From: Escherichia coli
Lineage (GTDB): Bacteria > Pseudomonadota > Gammaproteobacteria > Enterobacterales > Enterobacteriaceae
Strand: one strand, 5' to 3'
DNA: 64,000 nucleotides
Assembly (NCBI RefSeq): GCF_003334385.1
Contig: NZ_QOWN01000019.1
In this document: piece by piece, positions 4,514 through 42,000 of the stretch
Layout of the letters: each line of letters opens with the position of its first letter
How positions within the stretch are numbered: the stretch's first letter is position 1
Translations under genes and position numbers: made by a program
The notes under the pieces: generated by a model
What the model was told of the DNA's origin: nothing
Database searches by the model: none
What the model saw: the letters and a program-made list of their open reading frames with translations, nothing else

Positions 4514-5665
4514 ATGGCAGCTTCAACGTTCTTTATTCCTTCTGTGAATGTCATCGGCGCTGATTCATTGACTGATGCAATGAATATGATGGCAGATTAT
4601 GGATTTACCCGTACCTTAATTGTCACTGACAATATGTTAACGAAATTAGGTATGGCGGGCGATGTGCAAAAAGCACTGGAAGAACGCAATATTTTTAGCG
4701 TTATTTATGATGGCACCCAACCTAACCCCACCACGGAAAACGTCGCCGCAGGTTTGAAATTACTTAAAGAGAATAATTGCGATAGCGTGATCTCCTTAGG
4801 CGGTGGTTCTCCACACGACTGCGCAAAAGGTATTGCGCTGGTGGCAGCCAATGGCGGCGATATTCGCGATTACGAAGGCGTTGACCGCTCTGCAAAACCG
4901 CAGCTGCCGATGATCGCCATCAATACCACGGCGGGTACGGCCTCTGAAATGACCCGTTTCTGCATCATCACTGACGAAGCGCGTCATATCAAAATGGCGA
5001 TTGTTGATAAACATGTCACTCCGCTGCTTTCTGTCAATGACTCCTCTCTGATGATTGGTATGCCGAAGTCACTGACCGCCGCAACGGGTATGGATGCCTT
5101 AACGCACGCTATCGAAGCATATGTTTCTATTGCCGCCACGCCGATCACTGACGCTTGTGCACTGAAAGCCGTGACCATGATTGCCGAAAACCTGCCGTTA
5201 GCCGTTGAAGATGGCAGTAATGCGAAAGCGCGTGAAGCAATGGCTTATGCCCAGTTCCTCGCCGGTATGGCGTTCAATAATGCTTCTCTGGGTTATGTTC
5301 ATGCGATGGCGCACCAGCTGGGCGGTTTCTACAACCTGCCACACGGTGTATGTAACGCCGTTTTGCTGCCGCACGTTCAGGTATTCAACAGCAAAGTCGC
5401 CGCTGCACGTCTGCGTGACTGTGCCGCTGCAATGGGCGTGAACGTGACAGGTAAAAACGACGCGGAAGGTGCTGAAGCCTGCATTAACGCCATCCGTGAA
5501 CTGGCGAAGAAAGTGGATATCCCGGCAGGCCTACGCGACCTGAACGTGAAAGAAGAAGATTTCGCGGTATTGGCGACTAATGCCCTGAAAGATGCCTGTG
5601 GCTTTACTAACCCGATCCAGGCAACTCACGAAGAAATTGTGGCGATTTATCGCGCAGCGATGTAA
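4514..5665 (+). CDS. yiaY: iron-containing (group III) alcohol dehydrogenase, 383 aa
   Basis: Track ORF; Fe-ADH family motifs (GGGSPHD, histidine cluster). Confidence 0.9.
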
Positions 5666-17535: not shown

Positions 17536-18039
17536 TTAAGCTCCTTGCGGTGGCGACGTTAGAGAATTGCTACGCGTGATGAGTTGATATAAATGACGCA
17601 GTTCAAAGAATGCGATAACGAGGCTGGTGGGCAGACAAGCGGCATACATCAGGCCGATGGGTAAACCGAGGATCGGTGAATAATCGCTCCAGTCCTGAAT
17701 TGTTTTTAGCGTTGCGCCCCAGGCCAGTGCGCCACAAATAAATAAGATTAAGGAATGGGTAACCAGAGCGACTCGTCGCTGCCATGCGGGGGAGAGTTTC
17801 TCCACCAGAAAGGTGACCTGAACGTGGGCGTTATCCATAAAAGCTACAATCGCGCCAATAAACGTTAACCAGACAAATAAATAACGTGACAATTCATCAA
17901 CAGATAAAATGCTTGTCTGAAAACCATATCTTAAAATAATGTTTATAAATACAATACAGGAAAGTACGGCGAGATTAATCGCCAGTATTGCTTCGAGTAT
18001 TTTTTTTTCATAGCTATTCCTTGAGGCTATGTCTGTCAT
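17536..18039 (-). CDS. yiaM: TRAP transporter small permease (start position somewhat uncertain)
   Basis: DctQ-family; ATG at 18037-18039. Confidence 0.85.
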
Positions 18040-27425: not shown

Positions 27426-28607
27426 TCAAGAACGGCGTTTGGTTGCGGAGTCCATCCATACTGCCAGCAACAGAATCGCACCTTTAACGATATACTGCCA
27501 GAAGGTCGGTACATCCATCATACTCATGCCGTTATCCAGTGAAGCCATGATAAATGCCCCCATTACTGCTCCGGCAACGCTTCCCACACCGCCAGCCAGG
27601 CTGGTGCCGCCAATCACGCATGCTGCAATTGCGTCCAGTTCGGCGATATTTCCCGCAGAAGGTGAACCAGCGCCAAGTCGAGAACTAAGGATTAATCCGG
27701 CGATGGCTACCATTAATCCGTTAATCGCGAACACGGCAAGTTTGGTGCGTTCAACGTTAATCCCGGAGAGACGTGCTGCTTCCAGATTGCCGCCGATGGC
27801 ATAAATGCGTCGTCCAAATGCCGTCCGCGTTGCCATAAACATTCCGCCGAGTAACAGCAACGTCAGCAGCAGAACAGGAGTGGGAACGCCACGGTAATCA
27901 TTCAACAGCCAGATTGCGCCTAATACGATGATAGCGGTTAAAGCCTGGCGACCGACTACTGCGGTAGAGGCCGGAGACTGTAAACCCAAAGCCTGACGGC
28001 GCATTCTTCCGCGCCATTGCCAACCAACAAAAGCCATTAAGCCAAGCGCGCCAATGATGAAGCCGGTACTGGCGGGGAGATAGCTTTGCCCAATTTGTGA
28101 CATCGCGGCGCTGGTGGGGGATACAGTCGTGCCGTTGGTGATGCCAATGAGTATGCCGCGAAATGCCAACATGCCCGCGAGGGTGACAATAAATGAAGGG
28201 ACTTTACGGTACGCGACCCACCATCCGTTCCAGGCACCGAGAAGCAGTCCCAGAACCAGCGTCACAATGATGGTAAGTGGCAAAGGCCAGCCTAACCAGA
28301 CGTCACAAATCGCCGCGACGCCACCTAACAGCCCCATCATTGAGCCGACGGAAAGGTCGATTTCAGCAGAAATTATGACGAACACCATTCCTACCGCGAG
28401 GATGCCGGTAATCGCGGTCTGGCGTAACAGGTTGGAGACGTTACGGGCGCTTAAGTAGGCACCATCGGTGGTCCAGGTAAAGAACAGCATGATTGCGATG
28501 ATAGCTGCAATCATCACGAAGACCTGCAAATTCAGTGATTTCAGCCCGGAGAAGCCACCGGATGTCGGTACGGCCAATTTCACTTCAGACGGATTGCTTT
28601 TCGACAT
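27426..28607 (-). CDS. xylH: xylose ABC transporter permease (393 aa)
   Basis: Polytopic membrane protein, overlaps xylG 3' end. Confidence 0.93.
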
Positions 28608-30126
28608 GATGTTCGCTCCTCAATGCGGCTTCCATCACCTGCTCCTGAGTCAGGTTATGATTTATCAGGTTGGCTTTTAGTTTCCCTTCATGCATCACCA
28701 GTACACGATCGCTAAGGCCGAGCACTTCAGGTAATTCGGAAGAGATGACAATAACGGCAATACCCTGCTGGACGAGTTGGTTAATTAATTTGTAGATCTC
28801 GTATTTCGCGCCAATATCGATACCCCTGGTGGGTTCATCAAGAATGAGAATGCGCGGGTTAAGTAACAGACAGCGAGCGAGGATCGCTTTTTGCTGATTG
28901 CCGCCGCTCAAACGTCCAATAGCAAGGTCGGGGGACGACGTTTTAACTTTGAGTTGCTGGATTGATTCCAGAATACATTTTTGCTCTGCCGCGTCATCAA
29001 GCTGGCTAATGCCACCGGTAAATTTATTGAGTGCGGCGAGGGTAATATTTTTACCAACCGCCATTACCGGAACGATGCCGTCGCGCTTTCTGTCTTCGGG
29101 GACCATCGCAATCCCCTGGGCGATGGCTTGCTGACAGTTACGAATATCTACCTGTTTGCCATCAATATAAATTTTTCCTTCCCATTGTCCGGGCCACACA
29201 CCAAACAGGCACTGAATGGTCTCGGTACGTCCGGCACCAACGAGTCCGGCAATACCCAATATTTCGCCACGTTTCAGGGAAAACGAGACATCATTAACTC
29301 GTTTAATATGACGATTAACCGGATGCCATGCCGTCAGATGTTCAATACGTAATATTTCATCTCCGGTGGTATGTGGTTCATTAGGGTAAAGCGCGGTTAA
29401 CTCTCGCCCGACCATCATGGTGATAATATCGTCTTCACTCATTCCGGCAGCATCACGCGTACCAATGTGCTGTCCGTCGCGAATAACGCAAATCGTATCG
29501 GAAATCGCTTTGACTTCGTTGAGTTTGTGCGAAATATAAATACAGGCGATACCGTGCTGTTGTAGATCGCGAATAATATCCAGTAAAACCGACGTTTCCT
29601 GCTCAGTTAATGAGGCTGTCGGTTCATCGAGAATTAACAAGCGCACCTGTTTATTAAGTGCCTTGGCAATTTCAACCAGTTGTTGTTGCCCAAGCCCTAA
29701 ATCGCCAACGCGGGTATCAGGTGAAATGGATAAACTGACCTGTGCGAGCAGCTTCTGACAGCGTAGCGTCATCAGGTCATAATCCATAATGCCATTGTGA
29801 GTTATTTCGTTACCCAGGAAGATATTTTCCAGCACGGTCAATTCTTTCACCAGGGCCAATTCCTGATGAATGATGGCGATACCTTTGCGTTCGGTATCGC
29901 GGATGTGACTCGCCTGAATCTCTTCTCCCGCAAAAATAATTTCGCCTTCGTAGGAGCCATGGGGATAAATACCACACAGCACTTTCATCAGCGTTGATTT
30001 ACCAGACCCATTTTCCCCACAAAGTGAGACGATTTCGCCAGCATTCAACCGCAAGCAGACGTTATCAATCGCCTTCACACTGCCGAAGGTTTTGGTAATG
30101 TTCTTCATTTCAAGTAGATAAGGCAT
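28585..30126 (-). CDS. xylG: xylose ABC transporter ATP-binding protein, duplicated ABC domains (513 aa)
   Basis: Two Walker A (GENGSGKST / GLVGAGRTE) and signature motifs. Confidence 0.93.
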
Positions 30127-30203
30127 AACGACTCCACCTAAGCCAATTCATTCACGCGGCATGGAGAGAAATCACGCCCCCGCTCCGCGCTGGGGCGTAA
30201 CGC

Positions 30204-31196
30204 TTACAGCTCGCTCTCTTTGTGGAATCCGTCTTTAATTACCGTATCTTTGATGTTGTTTTTATTCACATCGATCGGTGTCAGGAGGCGGGAGGGGACA
30301 TCTTTCAGGCCATTATTCAGTGTGGTATCTGCTTTTGGTTCCTGACCATTGCCCAACTCAACGGCAATTTCTGCGGCAGTATTTGCCAACAACGTAATAG
30401 GTTTATACACCGTCATAGTTTGCGTACCGGCAGCAATACGTTTAATACCTGCGAGATCCGCATCCTGGCCGGAGATTGCTACTTTCCCTGATAAACCTTG
30501 CGCGCTTAATGCCTGAATTGCCCCACCTGCGGTGGCATCGTTTGAGGCAACTACAGCATCAATTTTGTTATTATTGGCGGTTAGCGCGTTTTCCATAATT
30601 TTCAATGCGTTTTCCGGTAACCAGCCATCAACCCATTGGTCACCAACGACTTTAATTTTTCCGGAATCAACGTAAGGTTTTAACACTTTCATTTGTCCGG
30701 CGCGGAACAGCTTGGCGTTGTTATCTACCGGCGAGCCGCCCATCAGGAAGTAATTACCTTGCGGAACAATATCGACCAGGGCTTTTGCCTGCAGTTCACC
30801 GACTTTTTCGTTATCGAAAGAAATATAAAAATCGATATCCGCATCGTTAATCATACGGTCGTAAGCTAATACTTTAATGCCTTCTTGTTTGGCTTCTTTT
30901 ACAACGTTACTTAATACCTGACCGTTATACGGAATAATGACAAGAACATCGACACCCCGGTTTATCATGTTTTCAATCTGCGACATTTGTGTTTCTTCAT
31001 TGCCATTTGCAGACTGTACAAATACTTTCGCGCCGAGAGATTCTGCCTTTTTCACAAAGATATCTCGATCTTTTTGCCAGCGTTCAAGACGGAGATCATC
31101 AATCGCCATACCTATTTTGACTTCTTTGGCGTGTGCAGCAACGTTGGTAAGCAGGAGTGAGGTGCAAAGGGTGAGTAGAATGTTCTTTATTTTCAT
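30204..31196 (-). CDS. xylF: xylose-binding periplasmic protein (330 aa)
   Basis: Native start MKIKNILLTLCTSLLLTNVAAHA (signal peptide); track ORF over-extended. Confidence 0.93.
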   Translation of the reverse strand: MKIKNILLTLCTSLLLTNVAAHAKEVKIGMAIDDLRLERWQKDRDIFVKKAESLGAKVFVQSANGNEETQMSQIENMINRGVDVLVIIPYNGQVLSNVVKEAKQEGIKVLAYDRMINDADIDFYISFDNEKVGELQAKALVDIVPQGNYFLMGGSPVDNNAKLFRAGQMKVLKPYVDSGKIKVVGDQWVDGWLPENALKIMENALTANNNKIDAVVASNDATAGGAIQALSAQGLSGKVAISGQDADLAGIKRIAAGTQTMTVYKPITLLANTAAEIAVELGNGQEPKADTTLNNGLKDVPSRLLTPIDVNKNNIKDTVIKDGFHKESEL

Positions 31197-31561
31197 GGTG
31201 TAGGGCCTTCTGTAGTTAGAGGACAGTTTTAATAAGTAACAATCACCGCGATAAACGTAACCAATTTTTAGCAACTAAACAGGGGAAAACAATTACAGAT
31301 TTTTATCTTTCGATTACGATTTTTGGTTTATTTCTTGATTTATGACCGAGATCTTACTTTTGTTGCGCAATTGTACTTATTGCATTTTTCTCTTCGAGGA
31401 ATTACCCAGTTTCATCATTCCATTTTATTTTGCGAGCGAGCGCACACTTGTGAATTATCTCAATAGCAGTGTGAAATAACATAATTGAGCAACTGAAAGG
31501 GAGTGCCCAATATTACGACATCATCCATCACCCGCGGCATTACCTGATTATGGAGTTCAAT
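31197..31561. promoter_or_regulatory. divergent xylF / xylA promoter region (expected XylR and CRP sites)
   Basis: 365-bp AT-rich intergenic region between divergent xylFGHR and xylAB; TGTGA-containing CRP-like half-sites present. Confidence 0.55.
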
Positions 31562-32884
31562 ATGCAAGCCTATTTTGACCAGCTCGATCGCGTTCGTTAT
31601 GAAGGCTCAAAATCCTCAAACCCGTTAGCATTCCGTCACTACAATCCCGACGAACTGGTGTTGGGTAAGCGTATGGAAGAGCACTTGCGTTTTGCCGCCT
31701 GCTACTGGCACACCTTCTGCTGGAACGGGGCGGATATGTTTGGTGTGGGGGCGTTTAATCGTCCGTGGCAGCAGCCTGGTGAGGCACTGGCGTTGGCGAA
31801 GCGTAAAGCAGATGTCGCATTTGAGTTTTTCCACAAGTTACATGTGCCATTTTATTGCTTCCACGATGTGGATGTTTCCCCTGAGGGCGCGTCGTTAAAA
31901 GAGTACATCAATAATTTTGCGCAAATGGTTGATGTCCTGGCAGGCAAGCAAGAAGAGAGCGGCGTGAAGCTGCTGTGGGGAACCGCCAACTGCTTTACAA
32001 ACCCTCGCTACGGCGCGGGTGCGGCGACGAACCCAGATCCTGAAGTCTTCAGCTGGGCGGCAACGCAAGTTGTTACAGCGATGGAAGCAACCCATAAATT
32101 GGGCGGTGAAAACTATGTCCTGTGGGGCGGTCGTGAAGGTTACGAAACGCTGTTAAATACCGACTTGCGTCAGGAGCGTGAACAACTGGGCCGCTTTATG
32201 CAGATGGTGGTTGAGCATAAACATAAAATCGGTTTCCAGGGCACGTTGCTTATCGAACCGAAACCGCAAGAACCGACCAAACATCAATATGATTACGATG
32301 CCGCGACGGTCTATGGCTTCCTGAAACAGTTTGGTCTGGAAAAAGAGATTAAACTGAACATTGAAGCTAACCACGCGACGCTGGCAGGTCACTCTTTCCA
32401 TCATGAAATAGCCACCGCCATTGCGCTTGGCCTGTTCGGTTCTGTCGACGCCAACCGTGGCGATGCGCAACTGGGCTGGGACACCGACCAGTTCCCGAAC
32501 AGTGTGGAAGAGAATGCGCTGGTGATGTATGAAATTCTCAAAGCAGGCGGTTTCACCACCGGTGGTCTGAACTTCGATGCCAAAGTACGTCGTCAAAGTA
32601 CTGATAAATATGATCTGTTTTACGGTCATATCGGCGCGATGGATACGATGGCACTGGCGCTGAAAATTGCAGCGCGCATGATTGAAGATGGCGAGCTGGA
32701 TAAACGCATCGCGCAGCGTTATTCCGGCTGGAATAGCGAATTGGGCCAGCAAATCCTGAAAGGCCAAATGTCACTGGCAGATTTAGCCAAATATGCTCAG
32801 GAACATCATTTGTCTCCGGTGCATCAGAGTGGTCGCCAGGAACAACTGGAAAATCTGGTAAACCATTATCTGTTCGACAAATAA
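31562..32884 (+). CDS. xylA: xylose isomerase (440 aa)
   Basis: Native start [16 protein letters not shown]; conserved FHD and WGGREG motifs. Confidence 0.95.
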
Positions 32885-32955
32885 CGGCTAACTGTGCAGT
32901 CCGTTGGCCCGGTTATCGGTAGCGATACCGGGCATTTTTTTAAGGAACGATCGAT

Positions 32956-34410
32956 ATGTATATCGGGATAGATCTTGGCACCTCGGGCGTAAAAGTTATT
33001 TTGCTCAACGAGCAGGGTGAGGTGGTTGCTGCGCAAACGGAAAAGCTGACCGTTTCGCGCCCGCATCCACTCTGGTCGGAACAAGACCCGGAACAGTGGT
33101 GGCAGGCAACTGATCGCGCAATGAAAGCTCTGGGCGATCAGCATTCTCTGCAGGACGTTAAAGCATTGGGTATTGCCGGCCAGATGCACGGAGCAACCTT
33201 GCTGGATGCTCAGCAACGGGTGTTACGCCCTGCCATTTTGTGGAACGACGGGCGCTGTGCGCAAGAGTGCACTTTGCTGGAAGCGCGAGTTCCGCAATCG
33301 CGGGTGATTACCGGCAACCTGATGATGCCCGGATTTACTGCGCCTAAATTGCTATGGGTTCAGCGGCATGAGCCGGAGATATTCCGTCAAATCGACAAAG
33401 TATTATTACCGAAAGATTACTTGCGTCTGCGTATGACGGGGGAGTTTGCCAGCGATATGTCTGACGCAGCTGGCACCATGTGGCTGGATGTCGCAAAGCG
33501 TGACTGGAGTGACGTCATGCTGCAGGCTTGCGACTTATCTCGTGACCAGATGCCCGCATTATACGAAGGCAGCGAAATTACTGGTGCTTTGTTACCTGAA
33601 GTTGCGAAAGCGTGGGGTATGGCGACGGTGCCAGTTGTCGCAGGCGGTGGCGACAATGCAGCTGGTGCAGTTGGTGTGGGAATGGTTGATGCTAATCAGG
33701 CAATGTTATCGCTGGGGACGTCGGGGGTCTATTTTGCTGTCAGCGAAGGGTTCTTAAGCAAGCCAGAAAGCGCCGTACATAGCTTTTGCCATGCGCTACC
33801 GCAACGTTGGCATTTAATGTCTGTGATGCTGAGTGCAGCGTCGTGTCTGGATTGGGCCGCGAAATTAACCGGCCTGAGCAATGTCCCAGCTTTAATCGCT
33901 GCAGCTCAACAGGCTGATGAAAGTGCCGAGCCAGTTTGGTTTCTGCCTTATCTTTCCGGCGAGCGTACGCCACACAATAATCCCCAGGCGAAGGGGGTTT
34001 TCTTTGGTTTGACTCATCAACATGGCCCCAATGAACTGGCGCGAGCAGTGCTGGAAGGCGTGGGTTATGCGCTGGCAGATGGCATGGATGTCGTGCATGC
34101 CTGCGGTATTAAACCGCAAAGTGTTACGTTGATTGGGGGCGGGGCGCGTAGTGAGTACTGGCGTCAGATGCTGGCGGATATCAGCGGTCAGCAGCTCGAT
34201 TACCGTACGGGGGGGGATGTGGGGCCAGCACTGGGCGCAGCAAGGCTGGCGCAGATCGCGGCGAATCCAGAGAAATCGCTCATTGAATTGTTGCCGCAAC
34301 TACCGTTAGAACAGTCGCATCTACCAGATGCGCAGCGTTATGCCGCTTATCAGCCACGACGAGAAACGTTCCGTCGCCTCTATCAGCAACTTCTGCCATT
34401 AATGGCGTAA
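32956..34410 (+). CDS. xylB: xylulokinase (484 aa)
   Basis: FGGY kinase; N-terminus MYIGIDLGTSGVK. Confidence 0.95.
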   Translation: MYIGIDLGTSGVKVILLNEQGEVVAAQTEKLTVSRPHPLWSEQDPEQWWQATDRAMKALGDQHSLQDVKALGIAGQMHGATLLDAQQRVLRPAILWNDGRCAQECTLLEARVPQSRVITGNLMMPGFTAPKLLWVQRHEPEIFRQIDKVLLPKDYLRLRMTGEFASDMSDAAGTMWLDVAKRDWSDVMLQACDLSRDQMPALYEGSEITGALLPEVAKAWGMATVPVVAGGGDNAAGAVGVGMVDANQAMLSLGTSGVYFAVSEGFLSKPESAVHSFCHALPQRWHLMSVMLSAASCLDWAAKLTGLSNVPALIAAAQQADESAEPVWFLPYLSGERTPHNNPQAKGVFFGLTHQHGPNELARAVLEGVGYALADGMDVVHACGIKPQSVTLIGGGARSEYWRQMLADISGQQLDYRTGGDVGPALGAARLAQIAANPEKSLIELLPQLPLEQSHLPDAQRYAAYQPRRETFRRLYQQLLPLMA

Positions 34411-34578
34411 ACGTTATCCCCTGCCTGACCGGGTGGGGGATAATTCACATCTATATATCTCAGTAATTAATTAATATTTAGTATGAATTTATTCTGAAAA
34501 TCATTTGTTAATGGCATTTTTCAGTTTTGTCTTTCGTTGGTTACTCGTAATGTATCGCTGGTAGATATGGAGATCGTT

Positions 34579-34920
34579 ATGAAAACCTCAAAGACTGTGG
34601 CAAAACTATTATTTGTTGTCGGGGCGCTGGTTTATCTGGTTGGGCTATGGATCTCATGCCCATTGTTAAGTGGAAAAGGCTATTTTCTTGGCGTGTTAAT
34701 GACAGCAACTTTTGGCAACTATGCATATCTTCGCGCAGAAAAACTCGGGCAACTGGATGATTTTTTTACCCATATCTGCCAGTTAGTTGCGTTAATCACT
34801 ATCGGTCTCTTGTTTATCGGTGTTTTAAACGCACCTATCAATACTTATGAAATGGTGATCTATCCCATCGCCTTTTTTGTCTGCTTGTTTGGTCAAATGC
34901 GTTTGTTTCGCTCGGCATGA
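34579..34920 (+). CDS. yiaB: YiaA/YiaB-family inner membrane protein (113 aa)
   Basis: ATG 34579; internal repeat of two-helix unit; paralog of next gene. Confidence 0.8.
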   Translation: MKTSKTVAKLLFVVGALVYLVGLWISCPLLSGKGYFLGVLMTATFGNYAYLRAEKLGQLDDFFTHICQLVALITIGLLFIGVLNAPINTYEMVIYPIAFFVCLFGQMRLFRSA

Positions 34921-34965
34921 GCAACATAAAGCTCTTACATATTCAGGAATGAAAGGAATACTGTG

Positions 34966-35403
34966 ATGGACAACAAAATATCAACCTATTCACCGGCCTT
35001 TAGTATTGTGTCATGGATAGCTCTCGTTGGTGGTATCGTTACCTATCTGTTAGGGCTATGGAATGCAGAGATGCAGTTAAATGAAAAAGGATATTATTTT
35101 GCCGTACTGGTATTAGGACTGTTTTCTGCGGCGTCTTATCAAAAGACCGTTCGGGACAAGTATGAAGGCATACCGACCACTTCCATTTATTATATGACCT
35201 GCCTGACTGTCTTTATTATCTCTGTTGCATTACTGATGGTAGGTCTGTGGAATGCGACATTATTACTCAGCGAAAAAGGTTTTTATGGACTGGCTTTCTT
35301 CTTAAGCTTGTTTGGTGCAGTAGCGGTGCAGAAAAATATTCGTGATGCCGGAATAAACCCACCAAAAGAAACACAGGTTACCCAGGAAGAATACAGCGAA
35401 TAA
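34966..35403 (+). CDS. yiaA: YiaA/YiaB-family inner membrane protein (145 aa)
   Basis: ATG 34966; shares LGLWNAxxxLxEKG(Y/F) repeat with yiaB. Confidence 0.8.
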
Positions 35404-35410
35404 CTCACGT

Positions 35411-35444
35411 AAGCCCGGTCAGTCCAATGTGACCGGGCTTTTAC
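35411..35444. terminator. bidirectional rho-independent terminator between convergent yiaA and wecH
   Basis: Stem gcccggtca / tgaccgggc with 8-nt loop, followed by TTTT. Confidence 0.7.
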
Positions 35445-36440
35445 TTAACTCACTAATCTGTTTCTGTCGATTCGTTGTACCAGCATAGAAAGTAACAAAC
35501 TCGCTGCCAACGTCGCGCAAAAGATCCAAATAATATCCAGTATTGGCCAATTTTTAAGCTCAATTCCCCGGGTGCGCAGCGCATGGATAATCAAGGCGTG
35601 GAATCCGTATATACCCAATGAATGGCGGGAGATTAAGCCAAGTCCGCGAATGGTACGCGTATCCAGCGTGTTTTTAACCAGAGTCAATAGCGCGATTGCG
35701 CAGATAAAAACCATCGGCCCACAGTAAAGATACCAGGTATCGGCAAAATTTCCGCGCCACTGCAATTCATATAATGTCCCGCGAGAGATAATAAAAACCC
35801 CCGTCGCAAACAGCGCGGCGCTCACCCACGACAGTGCTTTATGCTGTGTGTCCATCATCCCTATAGCGCGGCCCAACATGCCATACAGAATGTAGTAAAA
35901 AGTATCGCCATTGATATATAAGTTAATTGGCAGCCATTCAAAACCGTCAATTTTCTGCGGCACTGTGTTTGGGTTAGCGATAATGCCAATCACCGCCATT
36001 AGCACCAGCAACATTTTTCCGCCGACGTTCTTCACCTGAATCAGCGGTGAAACCAGATAAATCACCGCAATCGCGAAGAAAAACCACAAGTGGTAAAACA
36101 CTGGCTTTTGCAGCAGGTTTTTCAGCGCTAACTCCATATTGATGGAGGTAAACAGCGCAATGTAGAGCAGTGCGATTGCGCTATAAAAAATCAGACATAA
36201 GCCGATACGCAAGAAATGGCGCGGCTGGGCGCTGCGTTCGCCAAAAAAGAGATAGCCGGAAATCATGAAAAATAGCGGCACGCTGACACGAGAGGCAGAA
36301 TTCAGAACATTGGCGATATCCCATGTGACGGGGCTAACACTATGAGCATTGGTCACATACCAGGTAGTGGTGTGAATCATCACCACCATTAAACACGCTA
36401 TCCCTCGCAGGTTATCAATCCAGTAAATTTTGGGCTGCAT
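35445..36440 (-). CDS. wecH: membrane O-acetyltransferase, acyltransferase-3 family (331 aa)
   Basis: Polytopic membrane protein; length/context. Confidence 0.88.
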
Positions 36441-36614
36441 CTGTGTCTCTGTATCTGGTTAAAAAAAGTCTGACCGATAAATCATTTGGTTGGCGCACTG
36501 GAATAATCTGAGTTTTATCACTACAGCTTATAGAGGCTTAAGGAAATTCGTAAGATATCAGCCACTATACCGATATAAATAATAAGACTCACCTGCAAAC
36601 CAGACGGTAATTTA

Positions 36615-36914
36615 ATGATGATGAACGCTTTCTTTCCGGCAATGGCGCTTATGGTGCTAGTGGGTTGTTCTATACCGTCACCCGTGCAGAAAGCACAACG
36701 GGTAAAGGTTGATCCTCTGCGTTCGTTGAATATGGAAGCGTTATGCAAGGATCAGGCGGCAAAACGTTATAACACCGGCGAGCAAAAAATCGACGTCACC
36801 GCCTTCGAACAGTTCCAGGGAAGCTATGAAATGCGCGGTTATACCTTCCGTAAAGAGCAGTTTGTCTGTTCTTTTGACGCGGATGGCCATTTTTTGCATC
36901 TTTCCATGCGTTAA
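36615..36914 (+). CDS. ysaB: small lipoprotein (99 aa)
   Basis: Signal peptide with lipobox LVGC; context upstream of glyQ. Confidence 0.8.
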   Translation: MMMNAFFPAMALMVLVGCSIPSPVQKAQRVKVDPLRSLNMEALCKDQAAKRYNTGEQKIDVTAFEQFQGSYEMRGYTFRKEQFVCSFDADGHFLHLSMR

Positions 36915-37008
36915 GCCCTGCTTTTTCCCGTTTCGTACTGTATATCTTCCATCCAGCGGGTATACTGATCCCTTCCTTTAAATCCACACGTATCCAGCAC
37001 GAAATAAT

Positions 37009-37920
37009 ATGCAAAAGTTTGATACCAGGACCTTCCAGGGCTTGATCCTGACCTTACAGGATTACTGGGCTCGCCAGGGCTGCACCATTGTTCAACCATT
37101 GGACATGGAAGTCGGCGCGGGAACCTCTCACCCAATGACCTGTCTGCGCGCGCTGGGGCCAGAACCGATGGCGGCTGCTTATGTTCAGCCTTCTCGTCGC
37201 CCGACCGATGGTCGCTACGGCGAAAACCCCAACCGTTTACAGCACTACTATCAGTTCCAGGTGGTCATTAAGCCATCGCCGGACAATATTCAGGAGCTGT
37301 ACCTCGGTTCTCTGAAAGAGCTGGGCATGGACCCGACTATTCACGACATCCGTTTCGTGGAAGATAACTGGGAAAACCCGACGCTGGGTGCCTGGGGACT
37401 GGGCTGGGAAGTGTGGCTGAACGGCATGGAAGTGACGCAGTTCACTTACTTCCAGCAGGTTGGTGGTCTGGAGTGTAAACCGGTTACCGGCGAGATCACC
37501 TACGGTCTGGAACGTCTGGCCATGTACATTCAGGGCGTAGACAGCGTTTACGACCTGGTCTGGAGCGACGGCCCGCTGGGTAAAACCACCTACGGCGACG
37601 TGTTCCATCAGAACGAAGTGGAGCAGTCCACTTACAACTTCGAATACGCGGATGTGGACTTCCTGTTCACCTGCTTCGAGCAGTACGAGAAAGAAGCGCA
37701 GCAGCTGCTGGCGCTGGAAAATCCGCTGCCGCTGCCAGCCTACGAGCGTATTCTGAAAGCCGCCCACAGCTTCAACCTGCTGGATGCGCGTAAAGCCATC
37801 TCCGTCACCGAGCGTCAGCGCTACATTCTGCGCATTCGCACCCTGACCAAAGCAGTGGCAGAAGCATACTACGCTTCCCGTGAAGCCCTCGGCTTCCCGA
37901 TGTGCAACAAAGATAAGTAA
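37009..37920 (+). CDS. glyQ: glycine--tRNA ligase alpha subunit (303 aa)
   Basis: Recognised sequence; 9 nt before glyS. Confidence 0.96.
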
Positions 37921-37929
37921 GAGGCGGCT

Positions 37930-39999
37930 ATGTCTGAGAAAACTTTTCTGGTGGAAATCGGCACTGAAGAGCTGCCACCAAAAGCACTGCGCAGCCTGGC
38001 TGAGTCCTTTGCTGCGAACTTTACTGCGGAGCTGGATAACGCTGGCCTCGCACACGGCACCGTTCAATGGTTTGCTGCTCCGCGTCGTCTGGCGCTGAAA
38101 GTAGCTAACTTGGCGGAAGCGCAACCGGATCGTGAAATCGAAAAACGCGGCCCGGCGATTGCCCAGGCGTTCGACGCTGAAGGCAAACCGAGCAAAGCGG
38201 CAGAAGGTTGGGCGCGTGGTTGCGGTATTACCGTTGACCAGGCTGAGCGTCTGACTACCGATAAAGGCGAATGGCTGCTGTATCGCGCCCATGTGAAGGG
38301 CGAAAGCACCGAAGCACTGCTGCCGAATATGGTTGCGACTTCTCTGGCGAAACTGCCGATCCCGAAACTGATGCGTTGGGGCGCAAGCGACGTGCACTTC
38401 GTGCGTCCGGTGCACACCGTGACCCTGCTGCTGGGCGACAAAGTCATTCCGGCAACCATTCTGGGCATTCAGTCCGATCGCGTGATTCGCGGCCACCGCT
38501 TTATGGGCGAGCCGGAATTCACCATCGATAACGCCGATCAGTATCCGGAAATTCTGCGTGAGCGTGGGAAAGTCATCGCCGATTACGAAGAACGTAAGGC
38601 GAAGATTAAAGCCGATGCCGAAGAAGCAGCGCGTAAGATTGGCGGTAACGCTGACTTAAGCGAAAGCCTGCTGGAAGAAGTGGCTTCGCTGGTGGAGTGG
38701 CCGGTCGTTCTGACCGCAAAATTCGAAGAGAAATTCCTCGCGGTGCCGGCTGAAGCGCTGGTTTACACCATGAAAGGTGACCAGAAATACTTCCCGGTGT
38801 ATGCGAACGACGGCAAACTGCTGCCGAACTTTATCTTCGTTGCCAACATCGAATCGAAAGATCCGCAGCAGATTATCTCCGGTAACGAGAAAGTCGTTCG
38901 TCCGCGTCTGGCGGATGCCGAGTTCTTCTTCAACACCGACCGTAAAAAACGTCTTGAAGATAACCTGCCGCGCCTGCAAACCGTGTTGTTCCAGCAACAG
39001 TTGGGGACGCTGCGCGACAAAACTGACCGCATCCAGGCGCTGGCTGGCTGGATTGCTGAACAGATTGGCGCTGACGTTAACCACGCTACCCGTGCGGGTC
39101 TGCTGTCTAAGTGCGACCTGATGACCAACATGGTCTTCGAGTTCACCGACACCCAGGGCGTTATGGGGATGCACTATGCGCGTCACGATGGCGAAGCGGA
39201 AGATGTCGCGGTGGCGCTGAATGAGCAGTATCAGCCGCGTTTTGCTGGTGATGACCTGCCGTCCAACCCAGTAGCTTGTGCGCTGGCGATTGCTGACAAG
39301 ATGGATACCCTGGCGGGTATCTTCGGTATCGGTCAGCATCCGAAAGGCGACAAAGACCCGTTTGCGCTGCGTCGTGCCGCGCTTGGCGTGCTGCGAATTA
39401 TCGTTGAGAAGAACCTCAACCTTGATCTGCAAACGCTGACCGAAGAAGCGGTGCGTCTGTATGGCGATAAGCTGACTAATGCCAACGTAGTTGATGATGT
39501 TATCGACTTTATGCTCGGTCGCTTCCGCGCCTGGTATCAGGACGAAGGTTATACCGTTGACACCATCCAGGCGGTACTGGCGCGTCGTCCGACTCGTCCG
39601 GCTGATTTCGATGCCCGTATGAAAGCGGTATCGCATTTCCGTACCCTGGATGCAGCTGCTGCACTGGCGGCGGCGAACAAACGTGTATCTAACATTCTGG
39701 CGAAATCTGACGAAGTGCTGAGCGACCGCGTGAATGCCTCTACCCTGAAAGAGCCGGAAGAAATTAAACTGGCGATGCAGGTTGTGGTGCTACGTGACAA
39801 GCTGGAGCCGTACTTTACGGAAGGTCGTTACCAGGATGCGCTGGTCGAACTGGCTGAGCTGCGTGAACCGGTTGATGCTTTCTTCGATAAAGTGATGGTC
39901 ATGGTTGATGACAAAGAATTGCGTATCAACCGTCTGACCATGCTGGAGAAACTGCGCGAACTGTTCCTGCGCGTTGCGGATATTTCGCTGTTGCAATAA
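37930..39999 (+). CDS. glyS: glycine--tRNA ligase beta subunit (689 aa)
   Basis: Recognised sequence and length. Confidence 0.96.
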
Positions 40000-40016
40000 T
40001 AACGCCGTTATTAAAT

Positions 40017-40043
40017 AGCCTGCCATCTGGCAGGCTTTTTTTA
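40017..40043 (+). terminator. rho-independent terminator of glyQS
   Basis: agcctgcc atct ggcaggct followed by TTTTTTT. Confidence 0.8.
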
Positions 40044-40277
40044 TCGCTAAATAATACAGCAACCTTTAATAATCTTCTGCTGAATAAAGATTATCTCATA
40101 TATTAATTTTATGAGATTTTTTTAGGATTATATCAAGGAGAAGAAACAAACTTATTAAGCTAGAATAGCCACGGGTGCTTGAGACTGTTTGTCTCAGGTA
40201 TTCACCGAAAGGCAGACAGAGAAAAGCCCCACCTGACTATAAATCAAAGTTTGTACTGACCCCAAAAAGTTGGACAG

Positions 40278-41117
40278 TTAAACACGAGGCATATAGGTCT
40301 GATTCCGATATTCAATTGGAGTCAGACCTTTTAATTTCAGGCTAATTCTTCTGCTGTTGTAGTATTCAATATATTCCGTAACAGCATCCTTCAGTTCGCT
40401 TATATTACTGAACTCATCAAGATAAAAACACTCCGACTTTAAGGTTCCAAAGAAACACTCCACCACAGCATTATCCAGACAATTGCCTTTTCTGGACATG
40501 CTTTGTTTAATACCATGTTCTTTAAGGATATTTTGATATCTTCTCATACGATACTGCCATCCCTGGTCAGAGTGCAGAACAGGATGCTCGTGATTGAATG
40601 CCTGATCGAGCATATTCTCAACCATGTTCATCACTGGTCTTTCCGAAAGGCTGTAAGAAATAACTTCGTTGTTGAAGAGATCTATTACTGGAGACAAATA
40701 CAGCTTGCGCCCATTGACTGCAAATTCAGTAACATCGGTAACCCACTTCTCGTTTGGCCGCGTAGCCTTGAAATCTCTTTGGAGAACATTAGGGGCGGTT
40801 TGCCCTACCTCTCCTCTGTAAGAGCGGTATCGCTTGACCTTAATCGCTGCTTTAAGTGAGAGGGTTCCCATCAGGCGCTGAACAGCTTTATGGTTAATCT
40901 GTTTCCCTTCTCGATGAAGAGACAGCGTTACCCTACGGTATCCGTATCGGCCTCTATTCTCGTGATAAATCTCACTAATACGCTTTTTAACGTCCGCATA
41001 CTTGTCAGGCTTGCTGAGAGCCTTTAGATGATAATAAAACGTACTGCGCGGTATCTCCGCAGCCCTGAGAAGCTCATCAAGAGGATAAAACTGCCTTAGC
41101 TCGTTGAGTACTTTCAC
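40278..41117 (-). CDS. insK: IS150 transposase OrfB (DDE integrase domain); native start may lie a few codons upstream / be reached by -1 frameshift from OrfA
   Basis: Track ORF 279 aa; rve-type catalytic domain. Confidence 0.88.
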
Positions 41118-41635
41118 TTTTTCGTGGGATGAGCTAAGGCTTTCAGCTTTTTTAGATACATAAGCCGCGTTTCAAGAAATCGAACTTGCCTTTCAAGATC
41201 CTCAATGCGTCGGTCTTTTGACAGCTCCAATGCTGATGCCGCTTTTTCTGGATCAACTGATATTGCAATGTTTCTTTTGGTGCCAATCTTGAGCGCGCGT
41301 AAACCAGCTTCTCCGCGCTCTTCATAGACCTTCAGCCACCTGGCTACAGAACCACTACCAGCAAGCATAAAGTGAGCAGCAGCCTGATTAAGGGACATGT
41401 GCTGCTCGATCACAGCTTTCACGACCTTAATACGCAACTCTGGATCAGCACTAACGCCTTTAGGTTTGGGAATTAAACCTTTTTCTCCATGTTTTTCATA
41501 GAGGGCAACCCATGTCCTGACCTGGGTTCGGGGGACACCAAAACGTGCCGAGATGATCCTGTAACCATCATCAGTTGTGAAGTAGTGATTCACGACTTCA
41601 AGGCGCTTTTCAAAAGGGTATTTTGGCTTTGACAT
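41114..41635 (-). CDS. insJ: IS150 transposase OrfA (HTH), 173 aa
   Basis: Track ORF; A-rich slippery-like stretch near its 3' end. Confidence 0.88.
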   Translation of the reverse strand: MSKPKYPFEKRLEVVNHYFTTDDGYRIISARFGVPRTQVRTWVALYEKHGEKGLIPKPKGVSADPELRIKVVKAVIEQHMSLNQAAAHFMLAGSGSVARWLKVYEERGEAGLRALKIGTKRNIAISVDPEKAASALELSKDRRIEDLERQVRFLETRLMYLKKLKALAHPTKK

Positions 41636-41714
41636 ATTAGGGGCTATTCCATTTCATCGTCCAACAAAATGGGTGCAGTACATACTCGTTGGAAATCAAC
41701 ACAGGAGGCTGGGA

Positions 41715-41867
41715 ATGCCGCAGAAATATAGATTACTTTCTTTAATAGTGATTTGTTTCACGCTTTTATTTTTCACCTGGATGATAAGAGATTCACTGTG
41801 TGAATTGCATATTAAACAGGAAAGTTATGAGCTGGCGGCGTTTTTAGCCTGCAAATTGAAAGAGTAA
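41715..41867 (+). CDS. hokA: Hok-family type I toxin (50 aa)
   Basis: MPQKYRLLSLIVICFTLLFFTWMIRDSLCELHIKQESYELAAFLACKLKE; SD AGGAGG 8 nt upstream; IS150 end lies 32 bp upstream of ATG. Confidence 0.85.
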   Translation: MPQKYRLLSLIVICFTLLFFTWMIRDSLCELHIKQESYELAAFLACKLKE

Positions 41868-42000
41868 GAGTCTTCGGCGGGAAATTATTCCCGCCTTACT
41901 TACGGCGTTGCGCATTCTCATTGCACCCAAATTTATTCTTCACAAAAATAATAATAGATTTTATTACGCGATCGATTATTTATTTCCTGAAAACAAATAA

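Follow-up and report, generated by a model that had tools for sequence, protein, structure and literature searches.

yiaB and yiaA of Escherichia coli, a tandem pair of two-helix-repeat membrane protein genes long resident on enteric chromosomes

The two genes that follow xylB in the 64,000-nucleotide stretch of Escherichia coli DNA analysed here (contig NZ_QOWN01000019.1, hereafter the window) are the already annotated yiaB and yiaA, which encode small inner-membrane proteins, are stable on the chromosome and are dispensable. They are old residents of enteric chromosomes, not a recently acquired cassette. The account that best covers the whole of the evidence, and to which we assign a probability of roughly 0.6, combines these known genes and their duplicated hairpins with a YiaA that would be ancestral, a YiaB that would be derived, and a membrane bundle whose expression is conditional. 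YiaA would be the ancestral and strongly constrained member of the pair and YiaB a tandem paralogue derived from it in Enterobacteriaceae only. The genes, the family and its internal duplication are already known from RefSeq, Pfam, NCBIfam and TCDB. Coordinates of the features discussed are collected in Table 1.

Table 1. Features of the xylB-wecH interval, in window coordinates
Feature	Coordinates	Strand	Description
Stem-loop, 14 base pairs	34413..34444	+	directly after the xylB stop; separates xylAB from yiaB; no U-tract
ATTTATTCTGAA	34487..34498	+	best-conserved block of the xylB-yiaB spacer
yiaB CDS	34579..34920	+	113 aa plus stop; RefSeq b3563; four predicted transmembrane helices
YiaB two-helix unit 1	34594..34731	+	aa 6-51; PF05360 E = 3.6e-9; motif VGLWISCPLLSGKGYF (VGLWI...GKGYF)
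YiaB two-helix unit 2	34768..34893	+	aa 64-105; PF05360 E = 0.31 only; degenerate motif IGVLNAPINTYEMVIY (IGVLN...YEMVIY)
yiaA CDS	34966..35403	+	145 aa plus stop; RefSeq b3562; four-helix inner-membrane protein
YiaA two-helix unit 1	34999..35157	+	aa 12-64; PF05360 E = 1.1e-20; motif ...YQKTVRDK
YiaA two-helix unit 2	35188..35346	+	aa 75-127; PF05360 E = 1.7e-18; motif ...VQKNIRDA
GC-rich hairpin	35409..35444		between convergent yiaA and wecH

Two paralogous proteins built from a repeated hairpin

Positions of both open reading frames are those of yiaB (b3563) and yiaA (b3562) in E. coli K-12 MG1655, the window being the reverse complement of the corresponding MG1655 region, and nothing distinguishes the genes found here from their K-12 counterparts (PF05360, NF008482/NF008492, TCDB 9.B.44). 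At the whole-protein level YiaB scores 171.6 bits against NCBIfam NF008492 (curated cutoff 130) and YiaA 197.8 bits against NF008482 (curated cutoff 150); both belong to Pfam PF05360, the 53-residue YiaAB two-helix domain (TCDB 9.B.44), with two domains per protein. The original prediction of a tandem paralogous yiaB/yiaA pair was correct, as the two frames are adjacent on the same strand and BLASTP aligns YiaB to YiaA with 31% identity over 110 residues (E = 2e-12). The yiaB start that it gave, 34537, has to be moved: that position is the first TTG of the longest open reading frame (127 aa), while RefSeq begins the gene at the ATG at 34579 (113 aa), which has a GGAG 8 nt upstream.

A repeated two-helix unit had also been read from the sequence, and PF05360 is indeed found twice in each protein, an internal duplication already described for the YiaAB family (TCDB family 9.B.44, PMC3061005). 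The repeat is detectable even at the DNA level, with spacings of 411 and 189 nt. Unit 2 of YiaB, for which the PF05360 match is weak, rests mainly on the full-length alignment of YiaB to YiaA. The motif LGLWN...EKG(Y/F)(Y/F), proposed as shared by the two proteins, is exact in both YiaA units but not in YiaB, whose first unit departs from it and whose second is degenerate (Table 1).

Each protein is predicted to consist of two copies of a two-transmembrane-helix hairpin, giving four helices with both termini in the cytoplasm. The AlphaFold2 model of YiaA (pLDDT 92.6, pTM 0.84) places helices at residues 10-33, 38-66, 73-96 and 101-130. Lysine and arginine counts are those expected from the positive-inside rule, with 7 in the N-terminus, middle loop and C-terminus taken together vs 2 in the short loops of YiaA, and 7 vs 1 in YiaB. 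Conserved residues of YiaA were placed from sequence periodicity and DSSP helix limits. They recur in an i, i+3/4, i+7 pattern, and many are small (S, A, G) and lie on one face per helix, consistent with tight packing of the bundle. The YiaA helices contain no charged residue, and the conserved polar residues are found at the boundaries of the membrane instead of within it. Within each YiaA hairpin, W-N-A...L-N/S-E-K-G-Y/F is predicted to face the periplasm and Q-K-x-V/I-R-D the cytoplasm. A PDB sequence search with YiaA returned no match at E <= 1, PHROGs gave none either, and the best 50 Foldseek matches listed against AFDB50 were all YiaAB family members. An AlphaFold2 run on a YiaB-(GGGGS)6-YiaA fusion gave a low-confidence model, with pLDDT 59 and pTM 0.46, from a shallow alignment of seven paired Enterobacteriaceae sequences.

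Loci with YiaA homologues were gathered by searching genome contigs with a nine-sequence alignment. Across 81 sequences from eight phyla, 57 of the 120 core columns reach 90% identity or more. Identity between phyla is 57-72%, about as high as within phyla, a figure based on 80 of at least 579 loci, those closest to E. coli YiaA, so that it overstates family-wide conservation. Among these most similar loci, identity between Proteobacteria, Bacteroidota, Chloroflexota, Acidobacteriota, Bacillota and Desulfobacterota is about 60-70%. Some loci in Acidobacteria and Chloroflexi carried apparent long fusion frames; these are ORF-calling read-through artefacts, and domain fusions of YiaA in the two groups were rejected for that reason.

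YiaB has only 141 relatives in the database, and every one with a named organism comes from Escherichia, Citrobacter or Klebsiella. It is confined to Enterobacteriaceae, evolves about three times faster than YiaA (dN 0.33 vs 0.11) and lacks both cytoplasmic QKxxRD motifs and the second EKG motif. Values of pN/pS, computed against a divergent Escherichia genome, are 0.10 for yiaB, 0.085 for yiaA, 0.07 for xylB and 0.08 for wecH, and they point to purifying selection on both yiaA and yiaB. When YiaB was scored by BLAST against YiaA of different clades, Enterobacterales were among the top matches, a result that is not decisive. Judged from these comparisons, yiaB looks like a duplicate born within Enterobacteriaceae and not a gene co-acquired with yiaA, and duplication in place is a plausible origin for it.

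An oligomer of YiaA, possibly with YiaB, could be imagined as a small channel or transporter with its pore mouth lined by the conserved N/E/K loops. TCDB places the family among putative transport proteins (9.B.44), and several channel families are likewise built from duplicated two-helix units (PMC3061005); the very high conservation of transmembrane residues would fit tight oligomeric packing. We nevertheless regard this as unlikely, because there is no conserved charged or strongly polar residue within the helices, no channel emerged as a specific structural match, the gene context is not transport-related and a full-text literature search gave no functional data. The F-ATPase c subunit and VIC-type channels arose, like YiaA, by duplication of a two-TMS hairpin (PMC3061005). 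The c subunit, however, has an essential intramembrane carboxylate that is absent from YiaA, and YiaA shows neither a pore-loop signature nor any structural or sequence match to proteins of either kind. YccF (PF03733) and HdeD (DUF308 repeats) are further small inner-membrane proteins with a duplicated two-helix unit and an unknown or stress-related role. They share with YiaA and YiaB the tandem hairpins, the small size and the non-essential character, but the resemblance is one of form only: Pfam gives no sequence relationship, PF05360 being the only significant match.

Hairpins, spacer and separation from xylAB

Downstream of xylB, the hairpin at 34413-34444 folds with -21.5 kcal/mol (z = -3.2; matched by 2 of 200 shuffles), and the alignment places a hairpin at the equivalent position in Salmonella, Citrobacter and Klebsiella. 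The spacer between xylB and yiaB is 168 nt long and AT-rich. Within it ATTTATTCTGAA is invariant at 11 of 12 positions in E. coli, Salmonella, Citrobacter, Klebsiella and Superficieibacter, the exception being the T at 34495, which is C in Klebsiella; the remaining spacer diverges. Such conservation makes the block a candidate promoter or operator element for yiaB. A promoter scan returned no strong sigma-70-like site upstream of yiaB or yiaA on the + strand, and Rfam gave no match over 31000-37200 at E <= 1.

The hairpin beyond yiaA, at 35409-35444, folds with -21.2 and -22.0 kcal/mol on the two strands (z = -5.2 and -4.4), and none of 200 shuffles does as well. On its 3' side the + strand carries a U-tract, UUUUACUU, whereas the - strand reads UUACGUGAG and has none, so the structure is a good predicted intrinsic terminator for yiaA and a mere hairpin for wecH. 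The strong bidirectional terminator originally proposed is thus right as to a strong hairpin on both strands and a U-tract for yiaA, but on the wecH side there is a hairpin only. On the upstream side the pair is bounded by another hairpin, the one after xylB. A consensus terminator scan made no call at this site; hairpins of different sequence occupy the same place in Salmonella and Citrobacter, and none is significant in Klebsiella. A hairpin and a conserved AT-rich spacer lie between xylAB and yiaBA, and transcription of the pair would end before wecH.

This arrangement bears on the idea that yiaBA is co-transcribed with xylAB and aids xylose or xylulose transport or its regulation. In five Enterobacteriaceae genera xylB is indeed followed immediately by the pair, in the same orientation, and the hairpin after xylB, having no U-tract, could permit read-through. 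Against it stand the long spacer with its own conserved element and the treatment of yiaB and yiaA as separate transcription units (PMC10127797). Linkage to the xyl genes, and with it any place next to a xylAB operon, was found in Enterobacteriaceae only: Yersinia, Hafnia, Pantoea, Serratia and Cedecea, which carry yiaA alone at unrelated loci, have no xyl neighbours, nor do roughly 70 loci of other phyla, and in Phytobacter unrelated genes are inserted between xylB and yiaA. No polar residues lie inside the membrane to line a sugar path. We consider a xylose role quite improbable.

Composition and residence on enteric chromosomes

The region had been singled out as AT-richer than its flanks, and it is: GC is 0.41 for yiaB and yiaA vs 0.55 for xylB and 0.47 for wecH. 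GC3s values of the yiaA/yiaB pair are 0.377 and 0.407 vs amino-acid-matched expectations of 0.561 and 0.573, which makes yiaA the lowest of 50 genes (z = -4.5) and places yiaB at z = -3.7. The local GC and codon check thus finds a composition that deviates from the host, but the deviation is as great in xylF (z = -4.6) and yiaM (z = -4.2), so low GC3 is not diagnostic of transfer. Ortholog GC tracks the host, rising from 0.41 (E. coli) to 0.535 (Klebsiella), always below the flanking genes; since the low GC3 lasts in every host examined, it is no mark of recent transfer. It may instead reflect weak codon bias, as in a gene expressed at a low level or only conditionally, and horizontal acquisition should not be concluded from low GC3 alone.

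Each of the 5,426 complete E. coli genomes searched matches the region, with at least 80% of the query covered in 5,299, and the presence/absence polymorphism expected of an island does not occur among them. Salmonella, Klebsiella, Citrobacter and Superficieibacter share with E. coli the order xylA-xylB-yiaB-yiaA-wecH-ysaB-glyQS, a distribution across Enterobacteriaceae that speaks against the acquired cassette of the original prediction. Comparison between genera was made by dN only, as synonymous sites are saturated (pS 0.7-0.8); between E. coli and Salmonella the value for yiaA (0.11) equals that of its neighbours xylB (0.10) and wecH (0.12), with yiaB at 0.33. There is no tRNA gene in 28000-42000, no flanking direct repeats were found bounding yiaB-yiaA, and no integrase lies near the pair, whose neighbours are xylB and wecH. 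No copy occurs in 50,697 phage records, and in the plasmid collection copies are confined to 15 very large, non-mobilizable records.

A cassette recently acquired by horizontal transfer and still compositionally foreign is therefore very improbable, given the matches in every genome, the synteny across at least five genera, the dN of yiaA and a GC that follows the host. What can be said for it is the depressed GC3, the hairpins that bound the unit and IS1 insertions here in some strains. One such IS1 interrupts yiaA in an E. coli strain, which is the reason for calling the gene dispensable. On a deeper timescale the suggestion of acquisition retains some merit, as yiaA sits at unrelated loci in other Enterobacterales (in Hafnia within a low-GC block) and the YiaAB family is patchy across phyla; a rough NJ tree shows some cross-phylum mixing, with the Enterobacterales YiaA sequences grouped together.

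Immunity proteins against membrane-targeting effectors are often small proteins that cross the inner membrane several times, and homologues of YiaA do occur amid type VI secretion genes in Cedecea neteri, between tssK-tssL-(OmpA-like) and clpV/tssH, and in Pantoea, between tssB and vgrG/vasL fragments. Even with the reported up-regulation of yiaB in Klebsiella under a membrane-active peptide (PMC12210888), a protective or immunity-type protein tied to type VI secretion or another membrane attack is hardly credible: the link is seen in two related genera only and is probably a single event, no such context exists in E. coli or at other loci, PADLOC gave no match, and YiaA is extremely conserved, unlike immunity proteins in general, which tend to evolve fast.

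Expression clues and a possible role for YiaA

The statement that the function of these genes is unknown stands, as a full-text literature search found no paper assigning a function to YiaA, YiaB or PF05360. Many literature matches to "yiaA" proved to be the misspelt phylotyping marker yjaA or the YIAA mutant of a YIDD motif, and a silver screen, an AlaE screen and an acid-evolution study name yiaA or yiaB as list entries only. The two are true orphan "y-genes", belonging to a family that is named and has no function assigned.

Clues to regulation come from context and from other species. In 16 of 79 loci a gene for a dedicated cNMP-binding Crp-type regulator immediately precedes yiaA in the same orientation, a linkage that spans several Bacteroidota families whose other neighbours differ; outside Bacteroidota no partner gene conserved next to yiaA was found. 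A YiaAB-domain protein is induced 26-fold in a Variovorax biofilm (PMC7494200), and SoxS ChIP in Salmonella shows a peak at yiaB (PMC10268841). On the strength of the Bacteroidota regulator, the Variovorax induction and the Salmonella peak, expression of yiaA would be conditional, occurring only under some conditions.

Within our preferred account we tentatively suggest, as a possibility that may well prove wrong, that YiaA does not by itself form a pore or carrier but is a conditionally expressed accessory or stress-related membrane protein, a compact helical bundle acting via two conserved interfacial surfaces. Its four helices would pack tightly and work through conserved surfaces at the two membrane faces; the binding target would be widespread among bacteria, for instance a lipid head-group or some conserved partner in the envelope or membrane. 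YiaB, in turn, would be derived from YiaA and either specialised or modulatory.

More speculatively still, YiaA may be among the most sequence-constrained small bacterial membrane proteins while being dispensable and patchy, a combination that would point to an interaction with a near-universal component of the membrane or envelope that has so far gone unrecognised. Its expression would be under a dedicated Crp-type switch in Bacteroidota, and in Enterobacteriaceae YiaB, a degenerate tandem copy, would have been retained as its modulatory partner. The cross-phylum conservation of YiaA, the motif loss and faster evolution of YiaB, the Crp-type regulator of Bacteroidota and the enteric upstream element would provide handles on the function of PF05360.

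Identity and architecture of the yiaB/yiaA locus

The window matches the reverse complement of MG1655 at ~3.72-3.73 Mb and is E. coli K-12-like. Within it, the flagged interval consists of two already known genes, yiaB (b3563) and yiaA (b3562), same-strand ORFs that coincide with RefSeq and pass the curated NCBIfam cutoffs (YiaA, NF008482, 197.8 bits against 150; YiaB, NF008492, 171.6 bits against 130). They are preceded by xylA and xylB and followed by the convergent wecH, ysaB and glyQS. The original prediction was correct in its observation apart from the start coordinate, the reach of its motif and a terminator called bidirectional: the two adjacent genes are there, but the start given as 34537 is a TTG, the first in the longest ORF, whereas the annotated ATG, with GGAG 8 nt upstream, lies at 34579. 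RefSeq places the XylZ small RNA at the xylA 3′ end and xylA-xylB spacer in MG1655; an Rfam scan of window positions 31000-37200 matched no family at E ≤ 1. Downstream of glyS an IS150 copy (insJ/insK) adjoins hokA/mokA/sokA, as it does in MG1655.

The tandem paralogy of a repeated two-helix unit is borne out by a full-length BLASTP alignment of YiaB and YiaA (31% identity, E = 2e-12) and by two matches to the YiaAB domain PF05360 in each protein (1e-20 and 2e-18 in YiaA, 4e-9 and a weak second at 0.31 in YiaB). In the DNA, LGLW and EKG codon blocks recur at 411 nt from yiaB to yiaA and at 189 nt inside yiaA. The motif proposed as common to both proteins, LGLWN...EKG(Y/F)(Y/F), is exact in both YiaA units but approximate in the first YiaB unit (VGLWI...GKGYF) and lost from the second (IGVLN...YEMVIY). 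The family (PF05360, TC 9.B.44) and its duplication from two to four TMS have been described before (PMC3061005).

The hairpin between yiaA and wecH, for which no shuffle folds equally well, is strong on both strands, but only on the yiaA side does a U-tract follow it. In Salmonella and Citrobacter the equivalent spot has hairpins of different sequence, and no significant hairpin follows yiaA in Klebsiella. The xylB stop is followed directly by a GC-rich stem-loop without a U-tract, which may stabilise the RNA or partly terminate transcription where xylAB ends. In the xylB-yiaB spacer, ATTTATTCTGAA is near-invariant in E. coli, Salmonella, Citrobacter, Klebsiella and Superficieibacter, in contrast to the diverging remainder of the spacer, and it may be a promoter or operator element; a sigma-70 scan gave no match to it.

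Features of the window around yiaB/yiaA, and loci of other genomes with a Crp-like regulator gene upstream of the yiaA homologue
Feature	Position or loci	Strand or location	Detail
yiaM	17536-18039		GC3 deviation z = -4.2
xylF	30204-31196		GC3 deviation z = -4.6
XylZ	~32782-32941	xylA 3′ end and xylA-xylB spacer	small RNA
Stem-loop	34413-34444	directly after xylB stop	14 bp
ATTTATTCTGAA	34487-34498	xylB-yiaB spacer	11/12 positions invariant across five genera
yiaB CDS	34579-34920	same strand as yiaA	113 aa
yiaA CDS	34966-35403	same strand as yiaB	145 aa
Hairpin	35409-35444	yiaA-wecH, both strands	-21 and -22 kcal/mol
IS150 copy	~40250-41880	downstream of glyS	insJ/insK
Crp-like regulator	L022, L029, L032, L033, L036, L049, L051, L055	~100-700 nt upstream of match
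Crp-like regulator	L056, L061, L064, L065, L067, L074, L078, L082	~100-700 nt upstream of match

Base composition and history of the locus

The pair is indeed AT-richer than its flanks, with a GC of 0.41 in both genes against 0.55 in xylB and 0.47 in wecH. When synonymous codons are resampled from the remaining 48 window genes and the amino acids of each gene are kept fixed, GC3s is still low (yiaA, 0.377 against 0.561 expected, z = -4.5, the lowest among 50 genes; yiaB, 0.407 against 0.573, z = -3.7), so the AT-richness is real and not an effect of hydrophobic amino acids. Since xylF and yiaM deviate equally in the same amino-acid-matched comparison, low GC3 does not single out yiaB/yiaA; it is common in their neighbourhood. 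Ortholog GC tracks the host (E. coli 0.41, Salmonella 0.445, Pantoea 0.52, Klebsiella 0.535) and stays a few points under the flanking genes in every host examined, which makes low GC3 a persistent property of the gene. We infer that it reflects the weak codon bias of a gene of low expression.

An acquired cassette, as originally suggested, is unsupported for any recent event. Each of the 5,426 complete E. coli genomes searched has a match to the region, always on the chromosome, and the order xylA-xylB-yiaB-yiaA-wecH-ysaB-glyQS is the same in Salmonella, Klebsiella, two Citrobacter species and Superficieibacter. In the E. coli-Salmonella comparison, yiaA (dN 0.11) evolves at the rate of xylB (0.10) and wecH (0.12). 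GC follows the host, and marks of mobility are missing: no tRNA gene or bounding direct repeats were found around the pair, no homologue among 50,697 phage records, and a homologue in only 15 of 72,556 records of the plasmid collection, all >240 kb and typed non-mobilizable, several of them chromosome-sized. In other E. coli strains IS1 has inserted independently, splitting yiaA in one case and entering the xylB-yiaB spacer in another (L088, NZ_CP016404.1; L089, NZ_CM129878.1); IS1 lies within this 1.2-kb stretch in all eight top-ranked E. coli genomes, a ranking that partly reflects summed bit scores.

On a deeper timescale there is evidence that the family has moved. Relatives are encoded at no fewer than 579 loci among genomes of ~100,000 species, in at least eight phyla, and yiaA stands alone at unrelated loci in Yersinia (between metJ and rpmE), Hafnia, Pantoea, Serratia and Cedecea. 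In a rough NJ tree, Enterobacterales sequences group with one another, but some phyla are intermingled. In Phytobacter massiliensis (L013, 3438-4891) yiaB is absent, its place between xylB and yiaA being taken by genes for an isochorismatase-like hydrolase and a GlxA/FtrA-type AraC-family regulator. Hymenobacter sp. YC55 (L057) carries two YiaA-family genes, at 5001 and 6169, ~1.2 kb apart with one gene between, an independent duplication outside Enterobacteriaceae.

Divergence of YiaA and YiaB

YiaA is unusually constrained. In 81 sequences, drawn from the best-matching 80 of at least 579 loci, median identity between phyla (57-72%) is about equal to that within phyla (67-72%), and 57 of 120 core columns are ≥90% identical. 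The family is small, with 524 cluster representatives in 1.84 billion proteins at E ≤ 1e-3, and its proteins, 130-190 aa long, practically always stand alone; apparent domain fusions proved to be ORF-calling artefacts.

YiaB, by comparison, is limited in range and evolves fast. Its database relatives number only 141 and, wherever the source names an organism, come from Escherichia, Citrobacter or Klebsiella; compared with E. coli YiaB, identity falls to 58% in Salmonella and 45% in Klebsiella (YiaA, 82% in both pairs). Its QKxxRD motifs on the cytoplasmic side have both been lost, as has the second EKG motif; Superficieibacter YiaB is less degenerate, an intermediate state. Selection on yiaB nevertheless remains purifying, with pN/pS against a divergent Escherichia genome of 0.10 (yiaA 0.085, xylB 0.07, wecH 0.08). 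One genome labelled E. coli (L009, NZ_JAATUR010000010.1) looks like a divergent Escherichia lineage: in xylA, xylB, yiaB, yiaA and wecH, 19-37% of its synonymous sites do not agree with the window. The simplest origin for yiaB would be in-place duplication in the Enterobacteriaceae ancestor, on which similarity scores are indecisive.

Predicted structure, context and possible function

The AlphaFold2 model of YiaA (pLDDT 92.6) has four long helices (10-33, 38-66, 73-96, 101-130). Lysines and arginines concentrate in the N-terminus, middle loop and C-terminus (7 against 2 in the two short loops of YiaA, 7 against 1 in YiaB), so both termini of each protein are predicted to be cytoplasmic. Conserved helix positions recur at i, i+3/4, i+7 intervals, with S, A and G frequent among them, as is typical of a face that packs tightly. 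At the predicted membrane boundaries lie the conserved polar residues, W-N-A...L-N/S-E-K-G-Y/F on the periplasmic and Q-K-x-V/I-R-D on the cytoplasmic side of each hairpin, and the membrane helices hold no charged residue conserved across the 81 sequences. An oligomeric channel, in keeping with the placement of the family in TCDB among putative transporters (9.B.44, PMC3061005), is one reading of YiaA, though an unlikely one. Structure searches with YiaA (PDB by sequence, AFDB50 by Foldseek) added nothing beyond the YiaAB family among the matches listed, and a fused YiaB-YiaA AlphaFold2 model, built on a seven-sequence alignment only, had low confidence, with pLDDT 59 and pTM 0.46.

Immediately upstream of the yiaA homologue, 16 of 79 loci carry a same-strand gene of ~187 aa whose product combines a cNMP-binding domain with a Crp-like helix-turn-helix; these loci, from several Bacteroidota families, have otherwise different neighbours. 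In Variovorax biofilm a YiaAB-domain protein ranks with the most strongly induced genes (26-fold, PMC7494200), Salmonella has a SoxS ChIP peak at yiaB (PMC10268841), and an Lrp variant activates yiaB and yiaA, there treated as separate transcription units (PMC10127797). An accessory role in xylose use, suggested by position next to xylAB, is improbable for a family found at so many other loci. In type VI secretion clusters, a YiaA homologue lies between tssB and vgrG/vasL fragments in Pantoea (L008, 2194-5653), and Cedecea neteri (L014, 641-8284) has the order tssK, tssL, OmpA-like gene, yiaA, clpV/tssH. A protective role linked to type VI secretion is very improbable.

Full-text literature searches yielded no function assigned to YiaA, YiaB or PF05360, in agreement with the original prediction. 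Our tentative preference, at a probability of about 0.3, is that YiaA would be a compact bundle without a pore, an accessory or stress-related membrane protein that is expressed conditionally and acts by way of its two conserved surfaces at the membrane interface; YiaB may be a specialised or modulatory derivative of it.
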